Below are positions 3,317 through 17,742 of a DNA stretch of 64,000 bases, piece by piece. The notes beneath the pieces were generated by a model. That model did not search any database. It saw only the letters and a list, made by a program, of their open reading frames with translations, and had not been told where the DNA came from. This stretch comes from Vicinamibacterales bacterium (GTDB taxonomy: Bacteria; Acidobacteriota; Vicinamibacteria; Vicinamibacterales; UBA8438). The stretch lies in the NCBI GenBank assembly GCA_965203565.1, contig OZ241896.1:41707-105706 (forward strand), read 5' to 3'. The translations under genes were made by a program, and so were the position numbers. Within the stretch, counting starts at the first letter, position 1; each line of letters starts with the position of its first letter.

Positions 3317-4344
3317 TGCGGCGCGTCGGGCGGGCGTTCGCGCTGCCGGCCGCGTTCGTCGCCGCCGCCGCCTGCGCCGCAGACGGCGCCCACGCCGGCC
3401 TTGCCGCCCAGTCCGCCCAGCCCGAATCAACCGCTCGACCCGAGCCTGGCATCCAACCCGAACCGGCCGCCGACCTGTGGCGGTTCGACGACGAGGTCGA
3501 AGAGGCCGAAACCTGGGCGGCGCTCCTGCGGGATCAGGCCGCGGACCTCACGCTGTTCGCCGGCTTCGCGGCCCTGACGCTGATCGGCTTCTTCCGCAAG
3601 AGCGTCGCGCTGAAGTACGTCACGCTCGCGGCGGCGGTCGCCTGGCTCGGATTCGCCAAGAGCCAGCTGATTTCGGTGGTCAACCTCCATGGAGTGATGA
3701 CCGGCAACCTGCCGGTCTTCCGGTACAACCTTGCCTGGTATCTGTTCGCCGGCTTCACCGTCGTGACGACGGTGCTGTGGGGCCGGCTGTACTGCGGCCG
3801 GGTCTGCGCGTTCGGCGCGCTGACGCAACTGATGGACCGGGTCGTGCCGGCGCGGCTGCGCGTGGAGGTCCCCCCGCGGCTGGAGCGGCGCGCGGCGCTG
3901 GTGAAGTACGGCCTGCTCGCCGCGGTCCTCCTGTACTTCCTCGCGACGTCGGACGTCGGCGCCTACCGGTACGTCGAGCCGTTCTGGATGTTCACGCGCA
4001 GGGCGTCGGCCGGGATGTGGGCGGGGCTGGCCGTGCTGCTCGTCGCCACCGTCTTCGTCCGGAACCTGTACTGCCGCTTCCTCTGCCCGGTCGGCGCCGC
4101 GCTGGGACTGCTGTCGAAGCTGACGGTGTTCCGTATCCGGCGCTGGCCGGAGTGCGGCGCCTGCCGGATCTGCGAGAAGACGTGCGAATGGGGCGCTATT
4201 CGCGGGCCGCGCATCGTCGAGACCGAATGCGTGCGGTGCGACGACTGCGAGCGGCTCTACGCGGACCGGGCCAAGTGCCCGCACTGGCTGATCCTCGCCC
4301 GGCGGGCGCGCGCGTCCCGCGCCGCATCGCAGCAGCCCGCGTAG
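3316..4344 (+). CDS. polytopic 4Fe-4S-binding membrane protein (NapH/MauN/NosR C-terminal-like)
   Basis: The ATG at 3316 overlaps the upstream stop (TGATG). It has several TM helices, membrane Cys motifs LYCGRVCAFG and LYCRFLCPVG, and C-terminal ferredoxin-type CGACRICEKTC and CVRCDDCERLY. Confidence 0.7.
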   Translation: MRRVGRAFALPAAFVAAAACAADGAHAGLAAQSAQPESTARPEPGIQPEPAADLWRFDDEVEEAETWAALLRDQAADLTLFAGFAALTLIGFFRKSVALKYVTLAAAVAWLGFAKSQLISVVNLHGVMTGNLPVFRYNLAWYLFAGFTVVTTVLWGRLYCGRVCAFGALTQLMDRVVPARLRVEVPPRLERRAALVKYGLLAAVLLYFLATSDVGAYRYVEPFWMFTRRASAGMWAGLAVLLVATVFVRNLYCRFLCPVGAALGLLSKLTVFRIRRWPECGACRICEKTCEWGAIRGPRIVETECVRCDDCERLYADRAKCPHWLILARRARASRAASQQPA

Positions 4345-4346
4345 CG

Positions 4347-5480
4347 CTACTGCGACATCCCCGCGAACAGGAACCGCTGCATCCGTTCGTTGCGCTGGGC
4401 CTCCGCGGTGTACAGGTTCCCCCGGCTGTCCACCGCGATGTGGTGCAGCGCGTCGAAGTCGCCCGGCGCGGTCCCGAGCTCGCCCCACGTGTCGAGCACT
4501 TCGAGCGTCCGCCGGTCGAGGACGTGGACGTGCAGGTTCGCCTGGTCGGCGACGTACAGGTACTGCTGCTCCGGGTCGGGAGAGAACGCCAGCCCCGCCG
4601 CGGTCAGCGACCGCCCTTCGAACTGGTTGACGAAGACCTGACGCTGGTAGTCGCCCTCGAGGTCGAAGATCTGGATCCGGCTGTTGTTCCGGTCGGCCAC
4701 GTAGACCAGCCCGTCGTTCGACACTTCGATGCCGTGCACCGTGCCGAACCAGGGCGGCCCGTCCGGCGCGTCCGGCTCGGCCTCCGGCTCCGTGTCGCTC
4801 GGCTCCTTGCCGAAGGCGGCCCACATCCGCTTGAACTCTCCGGTGTCGGCGTCGAACACGATGACGCGCCGGTTGCCGTAGCCGTCCGCCACGAACACCT
4901 CGTTCGTCGGCTCGTAGACGAACATCTCGGCCGACCTCCGCACGCTCTCGGTGTCGAGGTTCCCGCCGTTCACGTCACGCCCGCCGATCTGGAGCAGGAA
5001 CTCGCCGGTGTTCGTGAACTTCAGCAGCATGTCGTCCCGCACCTCGGAGGGCGGGGTGCGGCCGGTCGGGTTGTTCCCCCCGATCCAGACGTGGCCGTTG
5101 TGGTCGACGAACAGGCCGTGCTCGTTCCACGGCCAGTCGAACCCCTCGCCCGGACCGCCCCAGGCGTTGACGAACGCGCCCGCGGCGTCGAACTCGATCA
5201 CCGGCGGCGCCGCGTTGTCCCGCTCCGCCTCCGGCGCGGTGAGCGGCCGGTGCAGCACCCAGACGTGGTCGCGCCGGTCGACCGACACGGACGACACCTC
5301 CCCGGTGATCCAGCCGTTCGGAAGCTGGGGCCAGTCCGGGTCGAGCTCGAACGTCGGGAAGCTCGCACCGGCGGCCTCCGGCGCCGCCTCGGGCGCGGCC
5401 TCCTCCGCGGGCGGCGCGCCGCCGCAGGCCGCCATCGAGAGCGCAAGCGCAGACGCGCCGATCGTCACCGTCCAGTGCAT
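4347..5480 (-). CDS. NHL-repeat beta-propeller lipoprotein
   Basis: The ATG at 5478-5480 gives lipobox ALALSMAAC. It carries repeated NHL-like blades (VYVADRNNSRIQIFD, LYVADQANLHVHVLD, LYTAEAQRNERMQRF). The upstream part of the 474-aa ORF looks non-coding. Confidence 0.65.
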   Translation of the reverse strand: MHWTVTIGASALALSMAACGGAPPAEEAAPEAAPEAAGASFPTFELDPDWPQLPNGWITGEVSSVSVDRRDHVWVLHRPLTAPEAERDNAAPPVIEFDAAGAFVNAWGGPGEGFDWPWNEHGLFVDHNGHVWIGGNNPTGRTPPSEVRDDMLLKFTNTGEFLLQIGGRDVNGGNLDTESVRRSAEMFVYEPTNEVFVADGYGNRRVIVFDADTGEFKRMWAAFGKEPSDTEPEAEPDAPDGPPWFGTVHGIEVSNDGLVYVADRNNSRIQIFDLEGDYQRQVFVNQFEGRSLTAAGLAFSPDPEQQYLYVADQANLHVHVLDRRTLEVLDTWGELGTAPGDFDALHHIAVDSRGNLYTAEAQRNERMQRFLFAGMSQ

Positions 5481-5610: not shown

Positions 5611-8367
5611 GTGACCTTCAAGCGGCGCATCGACCCGCATTGGCATCGGGAGGTCCCCGGGGCGCGGTGGTTCAAGGCGGACCTGCACGTCCACACGATG
5701 GATGACATCCCGGGCGGCAGAGTCGGAATGCCGCCGGGAATTGACGGGCCGCCCGCTTCGGAAGAAGTCATTTCAGCCTACGCGCGGAGCTTCCTGCAGG
5801 GCGCGGTCGAGCGGCAGGTGCAGGTGATCGGCGTTACGCCGCATTCGCCCCGCGTGGCCGACAGCGCCGAGTCGAGCGCGGTCTGGCGAATCGTCGAAGA
5901 ATGGAGCCGCGGCGCGGACGACGACGGGAAGCCGTTCCGCGAGAAGATATACGCGGTTTTTCCCGGTTTCGAGCCGTGTCTGAAGAACGGCAGGAGCGGG
6001 CTCCACCTGCTGTTTCTTTTCGATCCGGAAATAGGACGGGACCTTTATCTCAAGGCGTTCGACCTCGTCATGGGAGGCGCGGCGCCGTGGCGGGAGAACC
6101 GACTCGCGATGTCCGGAAGGGACGCCGAGCAGGTTTTCGGCGAGCTCCGAACCCTGCAGGGCGGCCAGTCCGCCAGGAACCCGCACGACTCGACGCGGTG
6201 GAGCTATCTGACGCTGGCGCCGCATATCGAAAGCGACAAGGGGCTTCTGGGAGCGCAAAAGGCGCAAGTGCTGGAGCGATTTCAGCACGGGGAAATCGCC
6301 GGTCTCGAACTCGGCGACGACAAGACGCCTCAAGACGCGTTGAAGGCGCGGCCGTGGCTGCTGGAGGGCATGCGCAAGCACCGCCAGGCGTTCTTTCACG
6401 GCAGCGACGCCTGTTCGCCGGGCGACATCGGCAGGCGCCATACGTGGCTGAAGCTCGCGAGCCCCCGGATAGAAGCGCTGCGTCAGGCATTCATCGCCAG
6501 CGATTCGCGGATGCGCATCGGCTACGAGCGGAACGCCGCCGGAGGACTCGCCGAAATTGCGGCTCCCGACGTCACGGTGAACGAACGGCCGTGGTTGAAG
6601 TCCGTTGCAGTCAAGGGGCGCGCGTCGTTCTTCGGCGGCGCAGACGCCGGCAGCCGTTTCGAACTGAGCCCGGACCTCACCTGCATCATCGGCGGCAGCA
6701 TGACGGGCAAGAGCACGTTCCTGGACGGCTTGCGCGTGCACGCCGGCGCTCCGTTGCCCCAGGACGCCGGAATCAGGAAGCAGGTTGAAGCGCGCGGGCG
6801 GGATCGATTTCTCGGCGGTTCGCCGACGATCACGCTGGAGTGTCCCGGCCGCGATCCGACCGCGCCGACAGGGAAGCGATGGCCGGCCGTATTTCACGCC
6901 CAGAACGAGTTGCAGCGCCTCGCGCAGGAGCCCGAGGCCGTCGAGGAAGTGCTGGCCCGGCTGGTGGCGTCGGAGACGTCGGGCATCGAAGCGCGCGACC
7001 GGCGGTTGGGCGCTCTGGACCGGGAGCTTGGAGACGCGGTCAGGAGATTGGCGAAGCTCGACGAGGACGTGGCCGACGCCGAGCAAGCCTTCGAGCGCAG
7101 CAAGAGCGCCGCCAAGGCGCTGGATACGTTTTCGGACGCCGGCGTCGAAGACGTTCATCGGGCGTCCCGCGACCTGCGCGATTGGGAGAATGCGGCGCAG
7201 GCCGCCGAAGATCTGATGGCGAGCTTGCAGCGCGCACTGCAGACCGCCCAGGCGCTCGACGTCCCGGAGATCGGCCCTGACGTGGCGCGTGCGCTGCAAA
7301 CCGCGCTCGTGGAGGAATCGCAAGATGCGTTCGCCGCGCGCTGGAAGCGGCTCCGCGCGCACGTGAGCGCCGCCGCGGAAGAACTGACGGGCGCCATGGC
7401 GGTCATGAAGTCGGCCGCGGCCGCCCTGGCGGAGCGCGACCGGGCGGTGCGCACCGACGTGGACCGCGAGCTTGCCGCTCGCGGCGTGGACGGCGCGGCG
7501 ATCAGGGAGTTTCAGGTTCTGAGTCGTCAGGCTGCGCTTCTGAAGAGCTACGAGGCCAATCTGACGGAGGTGCGCGGCAAGCTCGCCGCCGCCGAGCGCT
7601 CGTTCGAGAAACAGCTCGACGAGCGGCGGAGCCTCGTCGGCCGGCAGCGAGCCGCCTTCGACCGCATTGCAGATGCGATCCGCACCCAGTTCGGCGGGCG
7701 GATTTCGGCCCGTCGGATCGACGACGGCGACCGGGCGCCTCTCGACAGATTTCTCAGAGGCCTGAACCAGCGCGGCATCACCCGCTGGTGGAACGATCTG
7801 GCGGACCGGAAGCGGCCGTCGGCGCAGGAGCTGCTTGACAAGTTCAACGCGGGCAAGCTGGCGAGCGTCGGGATGAGCGACGCCGTCCGGGCGACGTTTC
7901 GCGGATGTCTTGACCGACTGAAGCAGCGGGAGCTGGCGGCCGTTCGGTGTCGCGACAGATATTTCCTGGAACTCGAAACGGACGCCGGCGGACGCCGGCT
8001 GGACGACCTCTCCGGCGGCCAGCGGGTGAGCGTGCTGCTCTCGCTGCTGCTGGAGACGAACGACGAACGCCCCCTGGTGATCGATCAACCGGAGGACGAG
8101 CTGGACAATCGATTCCTTTTCGACACCGTCCTGCCGGCGCTGAAACGGCTCAAGGGACGCCGCCAGATCATCGTGGCCACGCACGACGCCAACATGGTGG
8201 TCAACGGCGACGCGGATCAGGTCATTCAACTGGAAGCGACTGCGGACCGCGGGCGCGTCGCGCAGGCGGGGGCCATCGAGGAGCCCGCCGTGCGGGATGC
8301 GATCGTTCGCACCGTCGACGGCGGCGACGACGCATTCCGGCTGCGCAGGCTGAAGTACGGATTCTGA
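5611..8367 (+). CDS. PHP-domain phosphoesterase fused to SMC/ABC-like ATPase (PplA-like architecture)
   Basis: 918-aa ORF with a GTG start. The N-terminal PHP motif is FKADLHVHT...IGVTPHS. Walker A IIGGSMTGKSTF sits mid-protein, followed by a long Ala/Glu/Arg-rich coiled-coil-like region. The C-terminus has the ABC signature LSGGQRVSV and Walker B PLVIDQPEDELD, then VATHDANMVVNGDAD. Confidence 0.8.
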   Translation: MTFKRRIDPHWHREVPGARWFKADLHVHTMDDIPGGRVGMPPGIDGPPASEEVISAYARSFLQGAVERQVQVIGVTPHSPRVADSAESSAVWRIVEEWSRGADDDGKPFREKIYAVFPGFEPCLKNGRSGLHLLFLFDPEIGRDLYLKAFDLVMGGAAPWRENRLAMSGRDAEQVFGELRTLQGGQSARNPHDSTRWSYLTLAPHIESDKGLLGAQKAQVLERFQHGEIAGLELGDDKTPQDALKARPWLLEGMRKHRQAFFHGSDACSPGDIGRRHTWLKLASPRIEALRQAFIASDSRMRIGYERNAAGGLAEIAAPDVTVNERPWLKSVAVKGRASFFGGADAGSRFELSPDLTCIIGGSMTGKSTFLDGLRVHAGAPLPQDAGIRKQVEARGRDRFLGGSPTITLECPGRDPTAPTGKRWPAVFHAQNELQRLAQEPEAVEEVLARLVASETSGIEARDRRLGALDRELGDAVRRLAKLDEDVADAEQAFERSKSAAKALDTFSDAGVEDVHRASRDLRDWENAAQAAEDLMASLQRALQTAQALDVPEIGPDVARALQTALVEESQDAFAARWKRLRAHVSAAAEELTGAMAVMKSAAAALAERDRAVRTDVDRELAARGVDGAAIREFQVLSRQAALLKSYEANLTEVRGKLAAAERSFEKQLDERRSLVGRQRAAFDRIADAIRTQFGGRISARRIDDGDRAPLDRFLRGLNQRGITRWWNDLADRKRPSAQELLDKFNAGKLASVGMSDAVRATFRGCLDRLKQRELAAVRCRDRYFLELETDAGGRRLDDLSGGQRVSVLLSLLLETNDERPLVIDQPEDELDNRFLFDTVLPALKRLKGRRQIIVATHDANMVVNGDADQVIQLEATADRGRVAQAGAIEEPAVRDAIVRTVDGGDDAFRLRRLKYGF

Positions 8368-8384
8368 ATTCCTGAAGCTCGAAC

Positions 8385-9587
8385 ATGGAGTGGCTCGACG
8401 TCCTGCGGCGCATCGAAGCGGGCGAAGGACGGCGTACGGAGTTCAAGCGCGCACTCGGCAACCTGTCGGCTGTCGGCAAGGCGATCTGCGCCTTCGCCAA
8501 CGGCGAGGGCGGCGTCGTCGTGCTCGGGGTCTCGGACCGCGGGGACATCGTCGGCGTCAACGAAAACGTCGATGCCGTTCAGGAACGCCTTGCTTCGTTC
8601 CTCCAGACGGGGTGCAGTGCGCCGGTGTCGGCCCGTACGGGACGCCACGAAGACCCGAACGGCTGGGTGCACTGGGTGGAGATTCCACGCCAACGCGGAT
8701 TCGAGCCGATGCGCCATGGCGGCCGCGTCTGGATCCGCCGCGAGCGCAGCAGCGTCGAGCCTTCGCCGACGGAGTTGCAGGAACTCTACAATGCGTTCGG
8801 CTACGTCCTGACCGAGGAACGCGCCATTCAGGACGCCGTTGCGGCGCACATCGACCTCGCCGCCTTTCGCGCCTACCTGCATCGCTTCGGGTTCGATACG
8901 GAGCAGGAGCCGCAACCTGACAGCGAGGACGACCTTCGCAACCGGAGCGTGCTGGCGGACCTCGGCGGCGCGTTGCGGGCGACGCTCTACGGCGCGATGG
9001 CGTTCGGCAAAGACCCGCAGCGCTATCCGCAGACCCGGAATTTCCGCATCGAGTGCGTCGCATACGCCGGCGGCGACCGGGCGTCGGACGTGCTGCAGGT
9101 CGCCGACGCCGCCGGCCGGCTGAATGAACAGGTCGAACGGGCCAGCGGCTGGTTCCTGGGCTTGGGCCGTCTGGAGTCGTACGGGCATCTGATTCGCGAC
9201 GACCGCTACCTGCTGCCGCGCGCCGCGGTGCGCGAGGCGCTGGTCAATGCCGTGACGCATCGCGACTACGCCCTCACCGGGTCGAAAGTGTTCCTGGAGG
9301 CGTTCGCCGATCGCGTGGACGTGACGAGTCCCGGCGCCCTGCCGAATCAGATGACCGTCGAACGGGTTCGCGCAGGCGCCAATCCGCGGGCGAGAAACGA
9401 CTCCATGGGGCACTTCATGGCGGCGATGGGACTCATGGAGCAGCGCGGCCGAGGCTGGTTGATCATGCGCCGGGAAATGCGCGCGTTCAACGGCACGGAG
9501 CCGGAGCTCGTCCACGCCGAACAGGACCGGTTCGTCAAGGTGACGTTTCGTCTCGATGACCATGCGCCGGCCGCGCCCGCTCAGTAG
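8385..9587 (+). CDS. AlbA_2 (Schlafen-like) domain plus HATPase_c_4-like ATP-binding protein
   Basis: 400-aa ORF starting 18 nt after the PHP-ATPase stop. The N-terminal TEFKRALGNLSAVGKAICAFANGEGGVVVLGVSDRGDIVGV is the AlbA_2/Schlafen core. The C-terminal NAVTHRDYALTGSKVFLEAFADRVDVTSPGALP...RNDSM...EQRGRG matches the RecG-C-like HATPase_c_4 module. Confidence 0.75.
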   Translation: MEWLDVLRRIEAGEGRRTEFKRALGNLSAVGKAICAFANGEGGVVVLGVSDRGDIVGVNENVDAVQERLASFLQTGCSAPVSARTGRHEDPNGWVHWVEIPRQRGFEPMRHGGRVWIRRERSSVEPSPTELQELYNAFGYVLTEERAIQDAVAAHIDLAAFRAYLHRFGFDTEQEPQPDSEDDLRNRSVLADLGGALRATLYGAMAFGKDPQRYPQTRNFRIECVAYAGGDRASDVLQVADAAGRLNEQVERASGWFLGLGRLESYGHLIRDDRYLLPRAAVREALVNAVTHRDYALTGSKVFLEAFADRVDVTSPGALPNQMTVERVRAGANPRARNDSMGHFMAAMGLMEQRGRGWLIMRREMRAFNGTEPELVHAEQDRFVKVTFRLDDHAPAAPAQ

Positions 9588-9870
9588 TACTGCCGGACGT
9601 AGCCGTAGGCCCGGTCGAAGAGCCCCGTACAGGGACGCCCGACCGCTGAAATCGCCGTCCTTCGACACGATGGTGAAGCCGTGTCGCTGTGCGAAAGTAC
9701 AGATGGCAACGGCCCACTTCAGGTCAACCGGCCGAAGCCCCGTCAACCGTCGTTCGTGTCTGGCCGACGGGCTGTCCTCGAAGGCGCCTTCGCATCGGCG
9801 ACGTTGACCCGGTCACGTTCCGATGCCAGGATCAGCAACACGCCCTCGCCAACGGACGCCGCCGCGCCCT
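9581..9870 (-). pseudogene. possible PIN-like (DUF5615-type) toxin gene remnant, frameshifted
   Basis: Minus-strand pieces in different frames read GVLLILASERDRVNVADA / EGAFEDSPSARHERRLTGLRPVDLKWAVAICTFAQRHGFTIVSKDGDF / GLFDRAYGYVRQYY-stop. The ...A..HGF.IVSKDGDF segment looks like the C-terminal acidic motif of PIN-like toxins. At least two frameshifts are needed. Confidence 0.25.
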
Positions 9871-10004
9871 GGGTCGTTCGGTTGCGCGTCGTGTGCGCGC
9901 CAAGTTGATCCGTCGGGCCATGATTCAGTCGTTCGCCGATGACACCGCCGCCGATCATCGCCAGAGACCCCGGTTGGCCGGGACCCGCCATCTCGCCCGG
10001 AGAG

Positions 10005-10787
10005 ATGCTGCTGACGGTGAACCGCCGTCTGGACGCCATCGAGCGCGAAGAGGGCGTGCGGGTGCTGTTCGCCTGCGAGTCCGGCAGCCGCGCCTGGGGG
10101 TTCGCCTCGCCCGACAGCGACTACGACGTACGGTTCGTCTACGCGCATCCGCGCGACTGGTACCTCTCCATCGGCGACCAGCGCGACGTGATCGAGCGCC
10201 CGATCGTGGATCTGTACGACGTCAACGGCTGGGACCTGCGGAAGGCGCTGCGGCTCTTCAGGAAATCGAATCCGCCGATGCTCGAATGGCTCGGCTCGCC
10301 GATCGTCTACCGCGAGCGCACGGCCGCCGCCGCCAACCTGCGCCGGATCGCCGCGCGCAGCTTTTCGCCGCGCGCCTGCGCGTTCCATTACCTGCACATG
10401 GCGAGAGGCAACTACCGCGAGCACCTGCGGGCCGATGCCGTGCCCCTCAAGAAATACCTGTACGTCCTGCGCCCGCTGCTGGCCGTCCGGTGGATCGAGC
10501 GGAATCCGGGAATCGTTCCGACCGAGTTCCATCGCCTGGTCGACGCGATGGTCGACGACCCGCGACTCCGCGCGGCGATAGACGGCCTGCTCGAAAAGAA
10601 GCGGCGCACCCCGGAACTCGCCCGCGGCCCGCGAATCGAAGCGATCGGCGCGTTCATCGAAGCGGAGCTCGCCCGGCACGAGTCCGGCTTCGCTATCGAC
10701 GCCGCGCCGCCGCCCGCGCTGGAGGAACTGGACGCGCTGTTCCGGACCGCGCTGCAGGAAGCGTGGTCCGCGGCCCCCGGACCCTGA
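10005..10787 (+). CDS. nucleotidyltransferase domain protein (RlaP/COG3541-like)
   Basis: The ORF opens at 9939, and the ATG at 10005 (MLLTVNRRLDAIE) is a likely start. CESGSRAWGFASPDSDYDVRFVY is the hG[GS]...D.D minimal NTase motif. The tail is a helical WDLRKAL...PPMLEWL region. Confidence 0.7.
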   Translation: MLLTVNRRLDAIEREEGVRVLFACESGSRAWGFASPDSDYDVRFVYAHPRDWYLSIGDQRDVIERPIVDLYDVNGWDLRKALRLFRKSNPPMLEWLGSPIVYRERTAAAANLRRIAARSFSPRACAFHYLHMARGNYREHLRADAVPLKKYLYVLRPLLAVRWIERNPGIVPTEFHRLVDAMVDDPRLRAAIDGLLEKKRRTPELARGPRIEAIGAFIEAELARHESGFAIDAAPPPALEELDALFRTALQEAWSAAPGP

Positions 10788-10905: not shown

Positions 10906-12306
10906 ATGCACGAGCCTCCGCTGCTGCGACTCCAACGTATCGAGGTCGACGGCCTCTTCGGTATCTACGACCACCGTATCGACCTCAACCTCCGTGATCG
11001 GGTCACGCTCCTGCATGGCCCGAACGGCGTCGGGAAGACCTCCGTGCTGCGTATGGTCGATGCCCTGCTGCGAAACGACTTCGCCTGTTTCAAGCGCATA
11101 CCGCTCACGCGCTTTCTTCTGGGTTTCGAGGACGGCAGCACTCTGGAACTGCAGGCGTCCCGCGGCCCCGAAAACCACGAGGGATCAGGTGCAGGCGAAC
11201 TGAAGTTGACGAGGGCGGACGGCACTTCCAACACCGACCCAGTGGACCTCCGCCCGTCCGAAGCGGCATCCATCGCCGCCCGAATCGAGTACCTCCAACC
11301 CCATCACCACCGCCGGGACGCCTGGATTGACGTGCGCGACGGCGAGGTGCTCTCCGAGCTCGACGTGCTTTCGCGGTTCGGCAACAATCGCGGCGAAGCA
11401 AGGCCCAGGCTCGGCTCCTTTTCCTTGTTCGATCATCCTCAGCTTTCCGGACCCGTGGACAGCTCGTCGAGCGGAAAATCACCGTGGCTCGACGCATTTC
11501 TGAAGAACACGAACGCCTTCCTGATCGAGGCGCAACGACTCGTGCGGACCGAATCGAGCATCCGGCCGAAAACCGGACTCTCGCGCGGTTCCTTCGCTTT
11601 CGTTTCCAGTGTCCTCGAGTGCAGCCTGGACTTTCAGCGACGTCTCGGCGACACGATGGCGGCGTATGGACGACACGCGCAGACCCTGGACCAGTCGTTT
11701 CCGCAGCGTCTGATTTCGCCGACGAACGAACTCGCTCCCGACGAACTCCGGGAACGCATGACGGCGCTCGACGAAAAGACGGACGAGCTTCGGGCGCTCG
11801 GCATCCTCCCAGCCATGTCTCAGGCCGAGCAGCCGGACGAGACACCCAATCGTCCTTTCGACGCCGCCAGCCTGGACAAAATGGATTCCACGCAGGCCCG
11901 GGTCATGACGCTCTACGTCGAGGACACCGAGCACAAACTCCGGGCCCTGGAGGATCTGGCGAACCGGCTCCATCTTCTTCTGAACAGCGTGAACGGAAAG
12001 TTCCGGAACAAGCGTGTGCGCCTCGACAGAGAAGAAAAGAGCCTTGTGGCGGAAGACCTGGGCCGCCACCAGCTACCGCTGGACTCGCTCTCGTCCGGCG
12101 AACAGCACGAGCTCGTGCTGCACTACGATCTTCTGTTCCGAGCTGCGCCCAACACCGTCGTCCTGCTCGATGAGCCGGAGCTCTCCCTGCACGTCGGATG
12201 GCAGAAGAAGTTTCTGTCCGATCTGACGGCCATCGTCGAACTGTCCGGTCTGGACGCCGTGGTCGCCACGCACTCGCCTTTCATCGTCGGCGATCGGACG
12301 ACCTGA
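10906..12306 (+). CDS. AAA_15/21-type ABC-like ATPase (AriA-like, PARIS-type)
   Basis: 466-aa ORF. Walker A is LLHGPNGVGKTS. The C-terminus has LSSGEQHELVLHYDLLF, Walker B VVLLDEPELSLH and ATHSPFIV. It is immediately followed by a DUF4435-like gene. Confidence 0.75.
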   Translation: MHEPPLLRLQRIEVDGLFGIYDHRIDLNLRDRVTLLHGPNGVGKTSVLRMVDALLRNDFACFKRIPLTRFLLGFEDGSTLELQASRGPENHEGSGAGELKLTRADGTSNTDPVDLRPSEAASIAARIEYLQPHHHRRDAWIDVRDGEVLSELDVLSRFGNNRGEARPRLGSFSLFDHPQLSGPVDSSSSGKSPWLDAFLKNTNAFLIEAQRLVRTESSIRPKTGLSRGSFAFVSSVLECSLDFQRRLGDTMAAYGRHAQTLDQSFPQRLISPTNELAPDELRERMTALDEKTDELRALGILPAMSQAEQPDETPNRPFDAASLDKMDSTQARVMTLYVEDTEHKLRALEDLANRLHLLLNSVNGKFRNKRVRLDREEKSLVAEDLGRHQLPLDSLSSGEQHELVLHYDLLFRAAPNTVVLLDEPELSLHVGWQKKFLSDLTAIVELSGLDAVVATHSPFIVGDRTT

Positions 12307-12353: not shown

Positions 12354-13028
12354 ATGCAGGGACACAAGTCTCCCGGCATTCTGGTTGCCGAGATCACGAT
12401 GAGCCGCATGTCCCACGACGGCGCCTTTCTGCTGCTCGAAGGCAAGGACGACATCCGGTTCTGGCGATCGCGGCGCCACTCGAACTGCGAACTCGTCGAC
12501 GGCGAGGGCAAACCGAACGTCGTCGGAGCGATTCGACAGATCGACACGGCGCGGATCAGAGGCGCTCTCGGCATCGTGGACGCGGACTACGAGCTCCCGA
12601 CGAGCCCGCGCACCGAATCCAACAACTTGCTGTACACGGACGCCCACGACCTGGAGTGCCTTCTGTGTCGTTCGTCCGCACTCGACAAGGTGCTTGCCGA
12701 GCACGGCGATGCCGCGAAGATCCAGCGATTCGAGCACGACGCGGGCATCGACGTCCGCACCGCCCTTCTGGAACGGGCGCTGGCCTTCGGACGCCTGCGG
12801 TGGGTGGCCCGCGCCCGACGACCGGCGATTGCGCTGCGCGGAATAGCGGCGCCGCGGTTCGTGGACGAGAAAACGTGGACGGTAGACGGCGAGAAGTTGA
12901 TCCGCGAAACCGTTTCCGACGCCGATGCCCGGGCGGCCATCAAGATGCGCCTCGCGCAGCCCTGCAGGTCGCAGTGCTCACCGCCGCCAGCTTGGCCAAG
13001 CGCTGTTTTCCGGGCGCAGTGCGAGTAG
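12354..13028 (+). CDS. DUF4435/TOPRIM-like protein (AriB-like)
   Basis: 224-aa ORF. FLLLEGKDDIRFW...GIVDADYE is the Toprim-like E...DxD pattern of DUF4435/OLD-type nucleases. The C-terminal ~30 aa look frame-corrupted and overlap the start region of the next gene. Confidence 0.6.
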   Translation: MQGHKSPGILVAEITMSRMSHDGAFLLLEGKDDIRFWRSRRHSNCELVDGEGKPNVVGAIRQIDTARIRGALGIVDADYELPTSPRTESNNLLYTDAHDLECLLCRSSALDKVLAEHGDAAKIQRFEHDAGIDVRTALLERALAFGRLRWVARARRPAIALRGIAAPRFVDEKTWTVDGEKLIRETVSDADARAAIKMRLAQPCRSQCSPPPAWPSAVFRAQCE

Positions 13029-13075
13029 TTCTCGACGACCGGCTGGCCGCTTCTCCGCTCCTGCCGTGGCCGTCA

Positions 13076-14393
13076 ATGGGTCTGACGTTCGGCCAAGCAT
13101 TGTCGCGGGCCGCAGGAAGGCGACGGCTGCTTTCCGGTCACCGTGATCACAGCCGTGAACGCGACGGTACTGCCATCGTCTTTGGCGACGCAAATGCGCC
13201 GGACACGGCATTGCGCGTCACGTTCGACGGCTGGATCGCAGCTACCGGTCCGGCCGAAATGGTGGCTCGGTTGCCGGAACGCAGCAATTGCGTGCTCTCG
13301 GGCATCCTCGCCTCGTCGCTGGCGGTGTCGGAGATCTTCATGTCCTGCATGGGCGTCAGCGTGGCGGCGACCCGACGTCGGATTACACACTCTCTTTGGC
13401 GTCCCGGCGCGGACGTGCTTGATCCAGAAGCGCGGGGCGTGTCGATCGAGTTTCTGCCGAGAGCACTGTGGGTGTTGGGCCTGGGACACCTTGGCAACGC
13501 ATACCTGTGGGCGATCGCCGCCTTGCAACATCCCGATCCTGGCGAGGTCGAGGTGGTCCTGAACGACTTCGATCGGGTGGAGCCCGAAAACGTCGAAACC
13601 GGTCTGCTCTTCACGAACGTCGCACGCGGACAGTTCAAGACGCGGGTGTGCAGCGCATGGCTGGAAAAGCGAGGATTCCGGACGAGGATCGTCGAACGGC
13701 GGTTCGACGAGCATTTTCGCTGTCAAGCCGACGAGCCCCGGCTCGCGCTGTGCGGCTTCGACAACAACGCTGCACGAAGGCATCTGAAGGCGGCGGAGTT
13801 CGATCGCGTGCTCGAAAGCGGTCTCGGCGGGAAGGCCGATAATTTCGACACGCTTGCCGTTCACACCTTTCCGCAGTTCCGGCGCGTGGAGGAGTTATGG
13901 CGGGACGCTTCGCCAGAAGAAATTGCCGCCGACCATGAACACCGGATGCGCGCCGCGCAACAAAGCGCGGCCTATCAGCCCGTGGCGAAAGTCCCCGCTG
14001 CATTCGAGCGGCGATGCATCCCGCCTGACGGCGTTGTTCGTCGGTTGCGTATGCCCAATATGCGCCCTCCTCACGCCTTGTCAGCCGGGCGCCTCACCGC
14101 TCTCGGCGCGACGCGGGGATTCCACCACGGGCTGCTATGCCGGTATCGGGCACGACGAGTGCGGCAGATTCACGCTGGCAGGAAAGTCCATCGCCGTGCC
14201 GTTCGTCGGAACCGCGGCGGCGAGTTTCGTGCTTGCCGAAGCGATTCGACTTTTTCATCGGGGACCCGCGTGCAACGCCGTCAAGTTGCGGATGGCCACA
14301 CCGGCCCGTACACAGGTCGTGTCGGAACGGACGTATGTCGACAGTGATATCGAACGGCTCCTCTATTCACAGGCTCCAAAAGCGCGGTTCTGA
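13076..14393 (+). pseudogene. ThiF/E1-like adenylyltransferase gene interrupted by a MITE-like insertion
   Basis: The N-part (frame of 12656..) contains the Rossmann motif LWVLGLGHLGNAYLWAIAAL and LCGFDNNAARRHL. The C-part (frame of 13854..14393) reads YAGIGHDECGRFTLAGKSIAVPFVGTAAASFVLAEAIRL. Removing 13976-14134 plus one CTAT copy (163 nt) rejoins the frames into a 384-aa ORF. The true start is uncertain (ATG 13076 or GTG 12974). Confidence 0.75.
13976..14134 (+). mobile_element. MITE-like hairpin repeat, copy 1 (159 bp)
   Basis: Begins CAGCCCGTGGCGAAAGTCCCCGC and ends GCGGGGATTCCACCACGGGCTG. Flanked by direct CTAT (13972-13975 and 14135-14138). Confidence 0.85.
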
Positions 14394-14605
14394 TTGAAGT
14401 TAGAGCGCCAACGGTTGATCGCCGAGTGGACGGCTCGCGAGTAGCGTCTGATACGCAGGTCGTCGGTATCCATGTGTTCGCCGGCAACGTAGCGTTCAAG
14501 ACCTGCCTTGACGGGATCGACACGATCCTTGACTTGCCGCACCATGTCCCCGAACGCGACGCGCGTCCAGCCGGCCTTCACGCTTCCGGCCCGCAACCGT
14601 GTCAT
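14363..14605 (-). pseudogene. hsdS: type I R-M specificity subunit (hsdS) N-terminal fragment
   Basis: The 80-aa ORF starts immediately after the vapC stop (TGAATG). GWTRVAFGDMVRQVKDRVDPVKAGLERYVAGEHMDTDDLRIRRY resembles the first target-recognition-domain opening of HsdS. Similarity is lost after about 55 aa. Confidence 0.4.
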
Positions 14606-15419: not shown

Positions 15420-16411
15420 CTACCCATCGGCCTTCTGCTCCGCCACCACGCCGTCGAGCATCTCCACCACTTCGTCCATCCGCCGCCAGAAGTCCCGGCT
15501 GCCGGCGTCGAACTCGGCCCACGCGCTCCGCAGGTCGCCGGCCGGCCGCCGCACGTAGCGCGGGATCGACAGGTTCCCGTCGTTGGCGAGCACGTCGGCC
15601 GTCGTGGCCACCGCGGCGAAGCCCGGCTCGTCGGCGAACGCCCGGTACGCCTTCAGAATCCGCTGCTGGTGCGCCGCCGTGCAGGAAGCTCTGCGCGCGC
15701 TCGCGCGCCACTTCGCGCACCGCGTCGAGGAACAGCACCCGGCCGCGGCGCTTCGGCGGCTTGCGGGTGCGGCAGACGACGACGCACGCCTCCATCGGCG
15801 AGTTGTAGAACAGGTTCGGCCCGAGGCCGAGCACGCAGTCGACGAGGTCGCGCTCGATCAGGGCGCGGCGCATCGCGGCCTCCTCGTTGCGGAACAGGAC
15901 GCCGTGCGGGAAGAGGATGGCGCAGCGGCCGGTCCGCGCGGAACGCGTTCCGCAGCGCCCGGCCGACGTCGCGCGCCGCCCCGCGGACGTCGGACCAGTG
16001 GGCGCCGTCCGGGATGGCGAACCGGTCGTCGGCCGGCGCCCGCGCGTAGCCTTCGTCGCCGGTCTCGTCGAGGGCGGCGCGGCGCTCCTCGTCCCAGACG
16101 TCGGAGAGGCGCTTGAAGAAGAGCAGCGTGAAGGCGTATTGCTTGTAGTCGCCGGCGTCGACCAGCCCGCGCAGGAGGTTGGCGGCGCCCCAGAGGTACG
16201 ACTCCAGCGCCGGCCGGCCGAGGCGTTCGACGGGTGCGCTTACCAGCCCGTGGCGGAAGTCCCCGCTGCATTCGAGCGGCGATGCATCCCGCCTGACGGC
16301 GTTGTTCGTCGGTTGCGTATGCCCAATATGCGCCCTCCTCACGCCTTGTCAGCCGGGCGCCTCGCCGCTCTCGGTGCGACGCGGGGTTCCACCACGGGCT
16401 GTTACGGTCAC
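15420..16411 (-). pseudogene. hsdM: type I R-M methyltransferase hsdM, degraded (MITE insertion, internal deletion, frameshift)
   Basis: The HsdM_N-like part reads LESYLWGAANLLRGLVDAGDYKQYAFTLLFFKRLSD. It joins near 15930-15950 directly to GRCAILFPHGVLFRNEEAAMRRALIERDLVDCVLGLGPNLFYNSPMEACVVVCR...RGRVLFLDA. After a 1-nt frameshift near 15665 comes TAAHQQRILKAYRAFADEPGFAAVATTADVLANDGNLSIPRYV. Only about 276 codons remain, against roughly 500 expected. The GTG start overlaps the upstream vapC stop, and the MITE sits after codon 3. Confidence 0.75.
16244..16401 (+). mobile_element. MITE-like hairpin repeat, copy 2 (158 bp)
   Basis: Same termini as copy 1. Flanked by direct TTAC (16240-16243 and 16402-16405). 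Four differences from copy 1. Confidence 0.85.
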
Positions 16412-17470: not shown

Positions 17471-17742
17471 TTCTCGCTCATCGGCCGCATCGGGTTCGGC
17501 GCGCCTCGGCCGGCGCTCCCGCCCTCGCCCTGGCTGGATCGGGCGCCTTTGCCCTACCAGCCCGTGGCGAAAGTCCCCGCTGCATTCGAGCGGCGATGCA
17601 TCCCGCCTGACGGCGTTGTTCGTCGGTTGCGTATGCCCAATATGCGCCCTCCTCACGCCTTGTCAGGCGGGCGCCTCACCGCTCTCGGTGCGACGCGGGG
17701 ATTCCACCACGGGCTGCTACGCGCAGGTGGACGCCGCCGCCG
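17471..17742 (+). pseudogene. 3-prime remnant of a second autotransporter-like adhesin gene, carrying MITE copy 3
   Basis: 17471-17557 aligns to 23615-23701 (76 of 87 nt by manual alignment). It translates FSLIGRIGFGAPRPALPPSPWLDRAPLPY, against FSLIGRIGFGAPRTALPPAPWMNPPSLHY in the intact gene. 17717-17742 continues the match to 23698-23725. Confidence 0.7.
17558..17716 (+). mobile_element. MITE-like hairpin repeat, copy 3 (159 bp)
   Basis: Flanked by direct CTAC (17554-17557 and 17717-17720). Two differences from copy 1. Confidence 0.85.

Follow-up and report, generated by a model that had tools for sequence, protein, structure and literature searches.

The window discussed here is a stretch of 64,000 nucleotides from a Vicinamibacterales bacterium (Acidobacteriota). 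It contains a gene for an E1-like protein that is interrupted by a short repeat and is preceded, on the same strand, by genes for an ATPase and a DUF4435 protein. The locus comprises the following features.

10906 to 12306, plus strand: ariA-like ABC/AAA_21 ATPase gene (Pfam AAA_21/AAA_15; PADLOC AriA, E 4e-22)
12354 to 12959, plus strand: ariB-like DUF4435 gene, truncated at its 3' end (codons 1-202 of 278; DUF4435 and AriB matches)
12960 to 12961, no strand: deletion junction, at which 3,649 bp of the related contig L018 (about 6512-10161) are absent, with 1-nt microhomology (C at 12960)
12962 to 13975, plus strand: upstream piece of the bilD relic, codons 55-392 of the intact 476-codon gene
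13076 to 13078, plus strand: ATG, internal Met93 of the intact 476-aa protein
13972 to 13975: left copy of the CTAT target-site duplication, a single CTAT in relatives
13976 to 14134, plus strand: MITE of 159 bp with imperfect terminal inverted repeats of ~23 bp and a rod-like fold
14135 to 14138: right copy of the CTAT target-site duplication, a single CTAT in relatives
14139 to 14393, plus strand: downstream piece of the bilD relic, codons 393-476 plus the stop
14363 to 14605, minus strand: 5' fragment of hsdS, 80 codons (blastn to hsdS of contig L001), overlapping the end of bilD, as in the relatives

An earlier note on this DNA described a CTAT-flanked 159-bp repeat that splits an E1-like frame, and this description is borne out. 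Deletion of 163 nt (13976-14138) connects ...AAQQSAAY with AGIGHDECG... in an open frame of 1155 nt, which starts with the ATG at 13076, ends with the TGA at 14391-14393 and contains the motif LGLGHLGNAYL. The joined sequence, with a single CTAT, is found exactly in seven public contigs that encode either of two proteins, P0241 and P0242.

The only PADLOC match of the 384-aa joined frame is BilD (E 2e-116), and the frame extended to 12962 matches the BilD model PDLC03847 with E 4.3e-125 over positions 52-440 of 453. BilD homologues number 628 at E <= 1e-10; the full-length proteins among the best matches mostly have about 455-495 aa, and the matches listed among the homologues carry the Pfam BilD_N domain. 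A Pfam search of the joined protein did not return BilD_N and gave only a sub-threshold ThiF match (PF00899; E 1.4e-4, 21.5 bits where the cut-off is 28.1, covering only residues 133-238). The protein is related to ThiF by fold and, lying below the Pfam threshold, is not a member of PF00899. The earlier identification as an E1-type protein is supported by the BilD profile and by the fold of an orthologue. No NCBIfam model matched the protein, a PDB sequence search with an orthologue alone gave no match, and a search with a 30-sequence profile gave only weak matches to UBA3, MccB and ThiF.

An AF2 model of the 89%-identical orthologue P0001 (pLDDT 86.8, pTM 0.91) found E. aridi BilD as its best PDB match in a fold search (8TZ0_A, E 2e-15, TM 0.66-0.68), followed by the ISG15 E1 UBA7/UBE1L and other eukaryotic E1s. 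This orthologue is predicted to have the two adenylation domains and the Cys-bearing insertion of the fold. The motifs GLGHLG, NDFDRVEPEN, KTR and CGFDNN and the residue Cys400 are all present in the relic and invariant in 30 homologues. Judged by its sequence, the split gene is bilD, encoding the E1 of type I BilABCD, an anti-phage system that is ubiquitin-like.

In the literature, BilD adenylates the C-terminal glycine of the ubiquitin-like protein (Ubl) BilA and takes BilA onto a cysteine of a mobile helical insertion; it then hands BilA to the E2 BilB, which conjugates it to a phage tail protein. BilA is processed by the JAB protease BilC, and the operon is regulated by capH and capP. Published BilD proteins consist of an inactive and an active adenylation domain and the mobile helical insertion with the catalytic cysteine. 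This architecture is shared with the type II BilABCD system of Ensifer aridi TW10 (8TZ0/8TYZ; bioRxiv 10.1101/2023.09.26.559546), whose locus also has the divergent capH/capP regulators seen in the bil loci of the window's lineage, but identity to E. aridi BilD is only 14-15%, and the type I protein is shorter (476 versus 505 aa). Compared with the type I BilABCD system of Collimonas sp. OK412 (Hor et al., bioRxiv 10.1101/2023.09.04.556158), the relic matches the same BilD profile and its relatives carry bilA-D; the window, in a Vicinamibacterales (Acidobacteriota) host, keeps only bilD codons 55-476, split by the MITE. CBASS Cap2, ThiF, MoeB and MccB share the Rossmann-type adenylation domain, and weak profile matches to UBA3, MccB and ThiF were seen. 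These proteins are reported to form homodimers with a single adenylation domain per chain; BilD instead has two such domains in tandem, which make up a pseudo-dimer, and is not fused to an E2.

The 384-codon frame had been taken for the gene itself, and in this respect the earlier description has to be revised. The intact allele P0242 has 476 aa, the 90% cluster of P0001 holds proteins of this length, and the ATG at 13076 falls at Met93 of the intact allele. From 12962 onwards, the joined translation is the same as P0242 residues 55-476, letter for letter (422 shared residues). Homologues begin with M(R/L)LSRISKL...GADVG.SHTLQVAVLT, and the window has nothing before LQVAVLT. DNA homology to every orthologous bilD locus starts abruptly at 12960/12961, leaving the first 53-54 codons missing, so the repeat is not the only lesion, as had been supposed. 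Anchors flanking this junction map to positions 6511 and 10162 of L018, and comparison with L002, L003 and L005 gives the same break. On the other side, DNA identity of ariB to L018 and L005 ends at 12959/12960. The deletion fuses ariB codon 202 to bilD codon 54, and the ariB ORF runs out of frame into bilD sequence for 22 codons and stops at 13028. Homologues of the ariB product (276-281 aa) cover only 90% of the query.

What the deletion removed can be read from relatives. Contigs L017 (1.15 Mb) and L018 are syntenic with the window from a trlF-like ATPase through a Calx-beta adhesin, and in both of them ariB and bilD are separated by capP and capH, encoded on the minus strand, followed by bilA, bilB and bilC. 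PADLOC searches of the orthologues confirmed these gene families. In L017-L020 the order is bilA (two-Ubl, BilA_UBL_2), bilB, bilC (JAB) and bilD, and in the orthologous loci capP/capH diverge from bilA-bilB-bilC-bilD, which is the published arrangement. Relative to L018, the window has lost ariB codons 203-278, capP, capH, bilA, bilB, bilC and bilD codons 1-53/54. The codons of bilD that survive are identical to those of intact alleles, which indicates that the deletion, too, is recent. Another short repeat, ~95 bp long and present in at least 8 genome copies at ~85% identity (e.g., 3850105-3850201 and 495908-496002), lies just 3' of ariB in relatives (L005 3812-3905), within the segment deleted from the window.

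These data bear directly on the proposal that the E1 is a lone protein at the end of a defence operon, that is, a stand-alone E1 encoded by the last gene of a PARIS-like operon, intact until a recent MITE insertion and working without partners. Its frame does follow ariB without a gap and on the same strand, partners are absent from both window and genome, and the insertion is recent. The adjacency, however, was created by the 3,649-bp deletion, which truncated both genes; L017 and L018 have a complete bil operon between ariB and bilD; and distant ariA-ariB pairs have no E1. The close orthologues that were checked adjoin other bil genes, and the ATG that would start such a protein is the internal Met93. 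We regard a lone E1 as extremely improbable, and prefer to read the frame as a remnant of the bil operon.

The statement that no E2, JAB or Ubl partner is visible is correct for the window and extends to the whole genome. Searches by tblastn with 85-90% orthologues found bilA, bilB and bilC in neither the window nor the 3.95-Mb genome, and BilA, BilB and BilC HMMs, which recognise the proteins of the orthologous loci, found nothing in the complete genome. In 40 species-level relatives from the same genus, family and order, no bilD was found save for one weak partial match, and the near-identical relatives of bilD came from metagenome contigs. Such a patchy distribution would fit a horizontally acquired gene. 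At a 77%-identical orthologous locus (L001 1519-17712), capPH-bilABCD lie inside a type I restriction-modification (R-M) locus, between hsdR and hsdS-hsdM-hsdM, which also has insertions of a DruA/DDE gene and an ISAZ013-type transposase. The association of bil with type I R-M thus predates the lineage of the window.

The 159-bp element in bilD is short and non-coding, has inverted repeats and a target duplication, and occurs in many copies; it is a MITE. Its imperfect inverted-repeat ends are CAGCCCGTGG...CCACGGGCTG, and its fold is rod-like (-41.7 kcal/mol, z -2.9); an Rfam search of the element and the surrounding region found no family match. The 71% G+C genome has 167 full-length copies (a family of ~165), five of them in the window. 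A perfect 4-bp duplication is present at 124 of the 160 copies with exact ends (~75% of the full-length copies), and the target logo is a palindrome, GC|YTRR|GC. The element resembles small IS-derived MITEs with 4-bp CTAG-like target duplications, and the family may be IS5-like. The same MITE was found in Vicinamibacteraceae and Vicinamibacterales MAGs. Among pairs of matching MITE ends 0.6-6 kb apart in this genome, none encloses a transposase gene. A 4,963-bp CTGA-flanked segment, considered as a candidate autonomous partner, contains only ordinary genes and was rejected. The family falls into two subfamilies, a main one whose copies are 93-100% identical and a smaller one of about 25 copies at 85-88%. 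Relics with the same CAGCCCGTGG termini, either solo or very short (41-64 bp, end to end), are also numerous in the genome.

The insertion in bilD is recent, as the earlier note had suggested, because the near-identical relatives that cover the site are all empty. The seven contigs L014-L020 (99.4-100% DNA identity) have one CTAT and no element, and L002 and L003 likewise have a single CTAT at this position. The copy in bilD has 3 differences from the family consensus, against a mode of 5, and the copy at genome position 3,590,302 is identical to it. It sits between codons 392 and 393, where it shifts the frame 8 codons before Cys400.

An alternative is that the deletion junction, the MITE or both were mis-joined in assembly, and that the real strain has an intact bil operon. 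A MITE with ~165 copies could confuse an assembler, and L005, which is 99.5% identical over ariA-ariB and has the same bilD sequence, breaks off 40 bp ahead of the MITE site, as assemblies often do at repeats. The genome, however, is a single 3.95-Mb contig rated 100% complete, and the deletion junction lies in non-repeat DNA. A mis-join would leave unexplained the perfect duplication of 4 bp that relatives have only once, and sequence of bilA, bilB or bilC was found nowhere in the assembly. An assembly artefact is therefore very unlikely, and we treat both lesions as real.

The two pieces of bilD retain recognisable parts of the protein. The upstream piece matches positions 42-369 of the PADLOC BilD model (E 2e-105) and is identical to P0242 residues 55-392. 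It holds most of the inactive adenylation domain, the Gly-rich ATP loop GLGHLG (from residue 227), CGFDNN (from residue 318) and, by the secondary structure of the orthologue model, the first helices of the Cys-bearing insertion. The downstream piece matches positions 380-440 (E 8e-18) and is identical to P0242 residues 393-476. It contains Cys400 (in HDECG), 8 codons past the insertion point and invariant in 30 of 30 homologues; its position makes it the likely catalytic cysteine of BilD. With residues 1-54 gone and the helical insertion split, a complete E1 fold is not expected to form. The relic belongs to the BilD family by sequence and has neither the gene context nor the integrity of that family.

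The surviving coding sequence (1,266 nt) has no stop or frameshift beyond the two lesions. As its codons are protein-identical to the intact allele, a very recent loss cannot be distinguished from a retained fragment by this measure. Measured against intact L002, the relic has a dN/dS of 0.46, only slightly above the baseline of 0.33 between two intact orthologues, which hints at relaxation. At 14370-14393, every allele of the lineage, whether intact or not, carries one extra nucleotide compared with L001 and L002, which turns the BilD tail from VQKRGSD to APKARF and brings the stop 4 nt further upstream. The altered tail falls in a low-confidence part of the model (the last 7 residues average 55, and residues 475-477 are below 50). 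It was considered as an extra lesion of this copy and dropped, being common to all intact near-identical alleles.

Were the MITE absent, a GTG at 12974 could begin a 418-residue protein. One could accordingly suppose that a BilD with a short N-terminus became a functional, exapted adenylating enzyme after the deletion and was killed by the MITE only. The active-domain motifs GLGHLG, NDFDRVEPEN and CGFDNN and Cys400 are intact, and there are no further stops. Yet the deletion would remove the first helices and strand of the inactive domain (residues 16-51 of the orthologue model), E. aridi BilD was insoluble when its partners were not co-expressed (Chambers et al., bioRxiv 10.1101/2023.09.26.559546), and the substrate Ubl is absent from the genome. 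The identity of the fragment to the alleles of intact relatives also leaves no time for adaptation. We consider exaptation of this kind very improbable.

Our preferred reading, to which we assign a probability of about 0.92 on the sequence comparisons, is that the split frame is a dead bilD remnant broken by the 3,649-bp deletion and the MITE insertion. An illegitimate deletion, shown by comparison with the syntenic contigs, joined ariB to bilD and removed capP, capH, bilA, bilB, bilC and the start of bilD; a 159-bp MITE, shown by the empty sites in seven contigs, inserted within the Cys-bearing insertion, duplicating CTAT. No order of the two events is implied. The native start is lacking with the first 53-54 codons, and the MITE shifts the frame after codon 392. 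We infer that the relic makes no functional product, because the native start and the first beta-alpha units of the inactive domain are missing and the substrate and the E2 are absent. Given both lesions, excision of the MITE would restore neither a working gene nor a working system.

The genes upstream of the remnant match both profiles of PARIS, which consists of the AriA ATPase and AriB (DUF4435/Toprim); the E1 is a neighbour only, and the ariA-like gene is not functionally tied to it. In distant genomes the ATPase-DUF4435 pair is a stand-alone two-gene unit with no E1. The ariA-like gene in the window looks complete, and the ariB-like gene keeps 202 of about 278 codons. This PARIS-like pair is probably dead as well, since ariB was cut by the same deletion. 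RlaP was considered as a third member of the pair and rejected, as distant ariA-ariB pairs lack it. Further upstream, at 5611-9587, a 918-aa PHP-ATPase that reaches the TrlF-family threshold of NCBIfam (355.7 bits, cut-off 350) is followed by a Schlafen AlbA_2/HATPase_c_4 protein; the two genes look intact and are conserved in L017/L018.

Damage extends beyond bilD, both within the window and among its relatives. Compared with L017, the window lacks 343 bp at 9706/9707 (343-348 bp when L018 is included), a deletion that takes away most of a DUF433 antitoxin-like gene, and 665 bp inside hsdM (15936-15938). MITEs are present at 16244-16401 and 17558-17716, and both sites are empty in L017. The type I R-M operon 3' of bilD is thus being wrecked like the bil locus. 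The 80-aa ORF that represents the hsdS fragment follows bilD in L014, L015 and L018 as well. Three MITEs lie within 3.7 kb, where the genome average is one per about 24 kb, a density that would fit insertion into DNA no longer under selection. Relative to L004/L005, the window also has a 286-bp deletion at 10013-10014 that fuses codons 1-25 of an HTH gene to codon 19 of a gene for an RlaP nucleotidyltransferase; 10013/10014 is unbroken relative to L017 or L018, and L017 encodes a 282-aa RlaP.

In L005, L014 and L015, a 2.3-kb deletion extends from inside capP to the end of bilB, and the 5' part of capP, capH, bilA and bilB are gone. In these contigs bilC is damaged at the same spot, by a 45-nt in-frame deletion of the JAMM HxH in L005 (region 4214-4651) and by a frameshift in L014 and L015. 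The spot may be prone to mutation locally, or a JAB protease without partners may have been selected against repeatedly. In L004, ariB is followed by a MITE and remnants of hsdM, and bilD is absent. The locus is seen in four states: a complete capPH-bilABCD (L018; the only variation in L019 and L020 concerns whether capP has its full length), absence of bilA and bilB together with a damaged bilC (L005, L014, L015), the MITE-hit bilD stump of the window, and no bil gene (L004). Small illegitimate deletions and an active MITE, concentrated in the island, may drive these changes. At about even odds, the window and its 96.5-100%-identical metagenome relatives capture the stepwise loss of a defence system in a natural Vicinamibacterales population.

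The bilD relic is a twice-broken pseudogene in an eroding defence island, in which a known system undergoes ordinary decay, and no new mechanism is required to explain the locus. A false lead is thereby removed, as this DNA contains neither an E1-only defence module nor an E1 partner of PARIS. The locus also calls for caution in annotation, since a gene caller lists the relic as a protein of 457 aa (P0004). The comparison documents type I Bil systems in Acidobacteriota (Vicinamibacterales), a phylum that has received little attention for Bil, and one lineage of soil Vicinamibacterales is losing its system piecewise through kilobase deletions and an active 159-bp MITE. Should these variants occur together in the same soils, the locus would offer a natural time series of how a defence island erodes.
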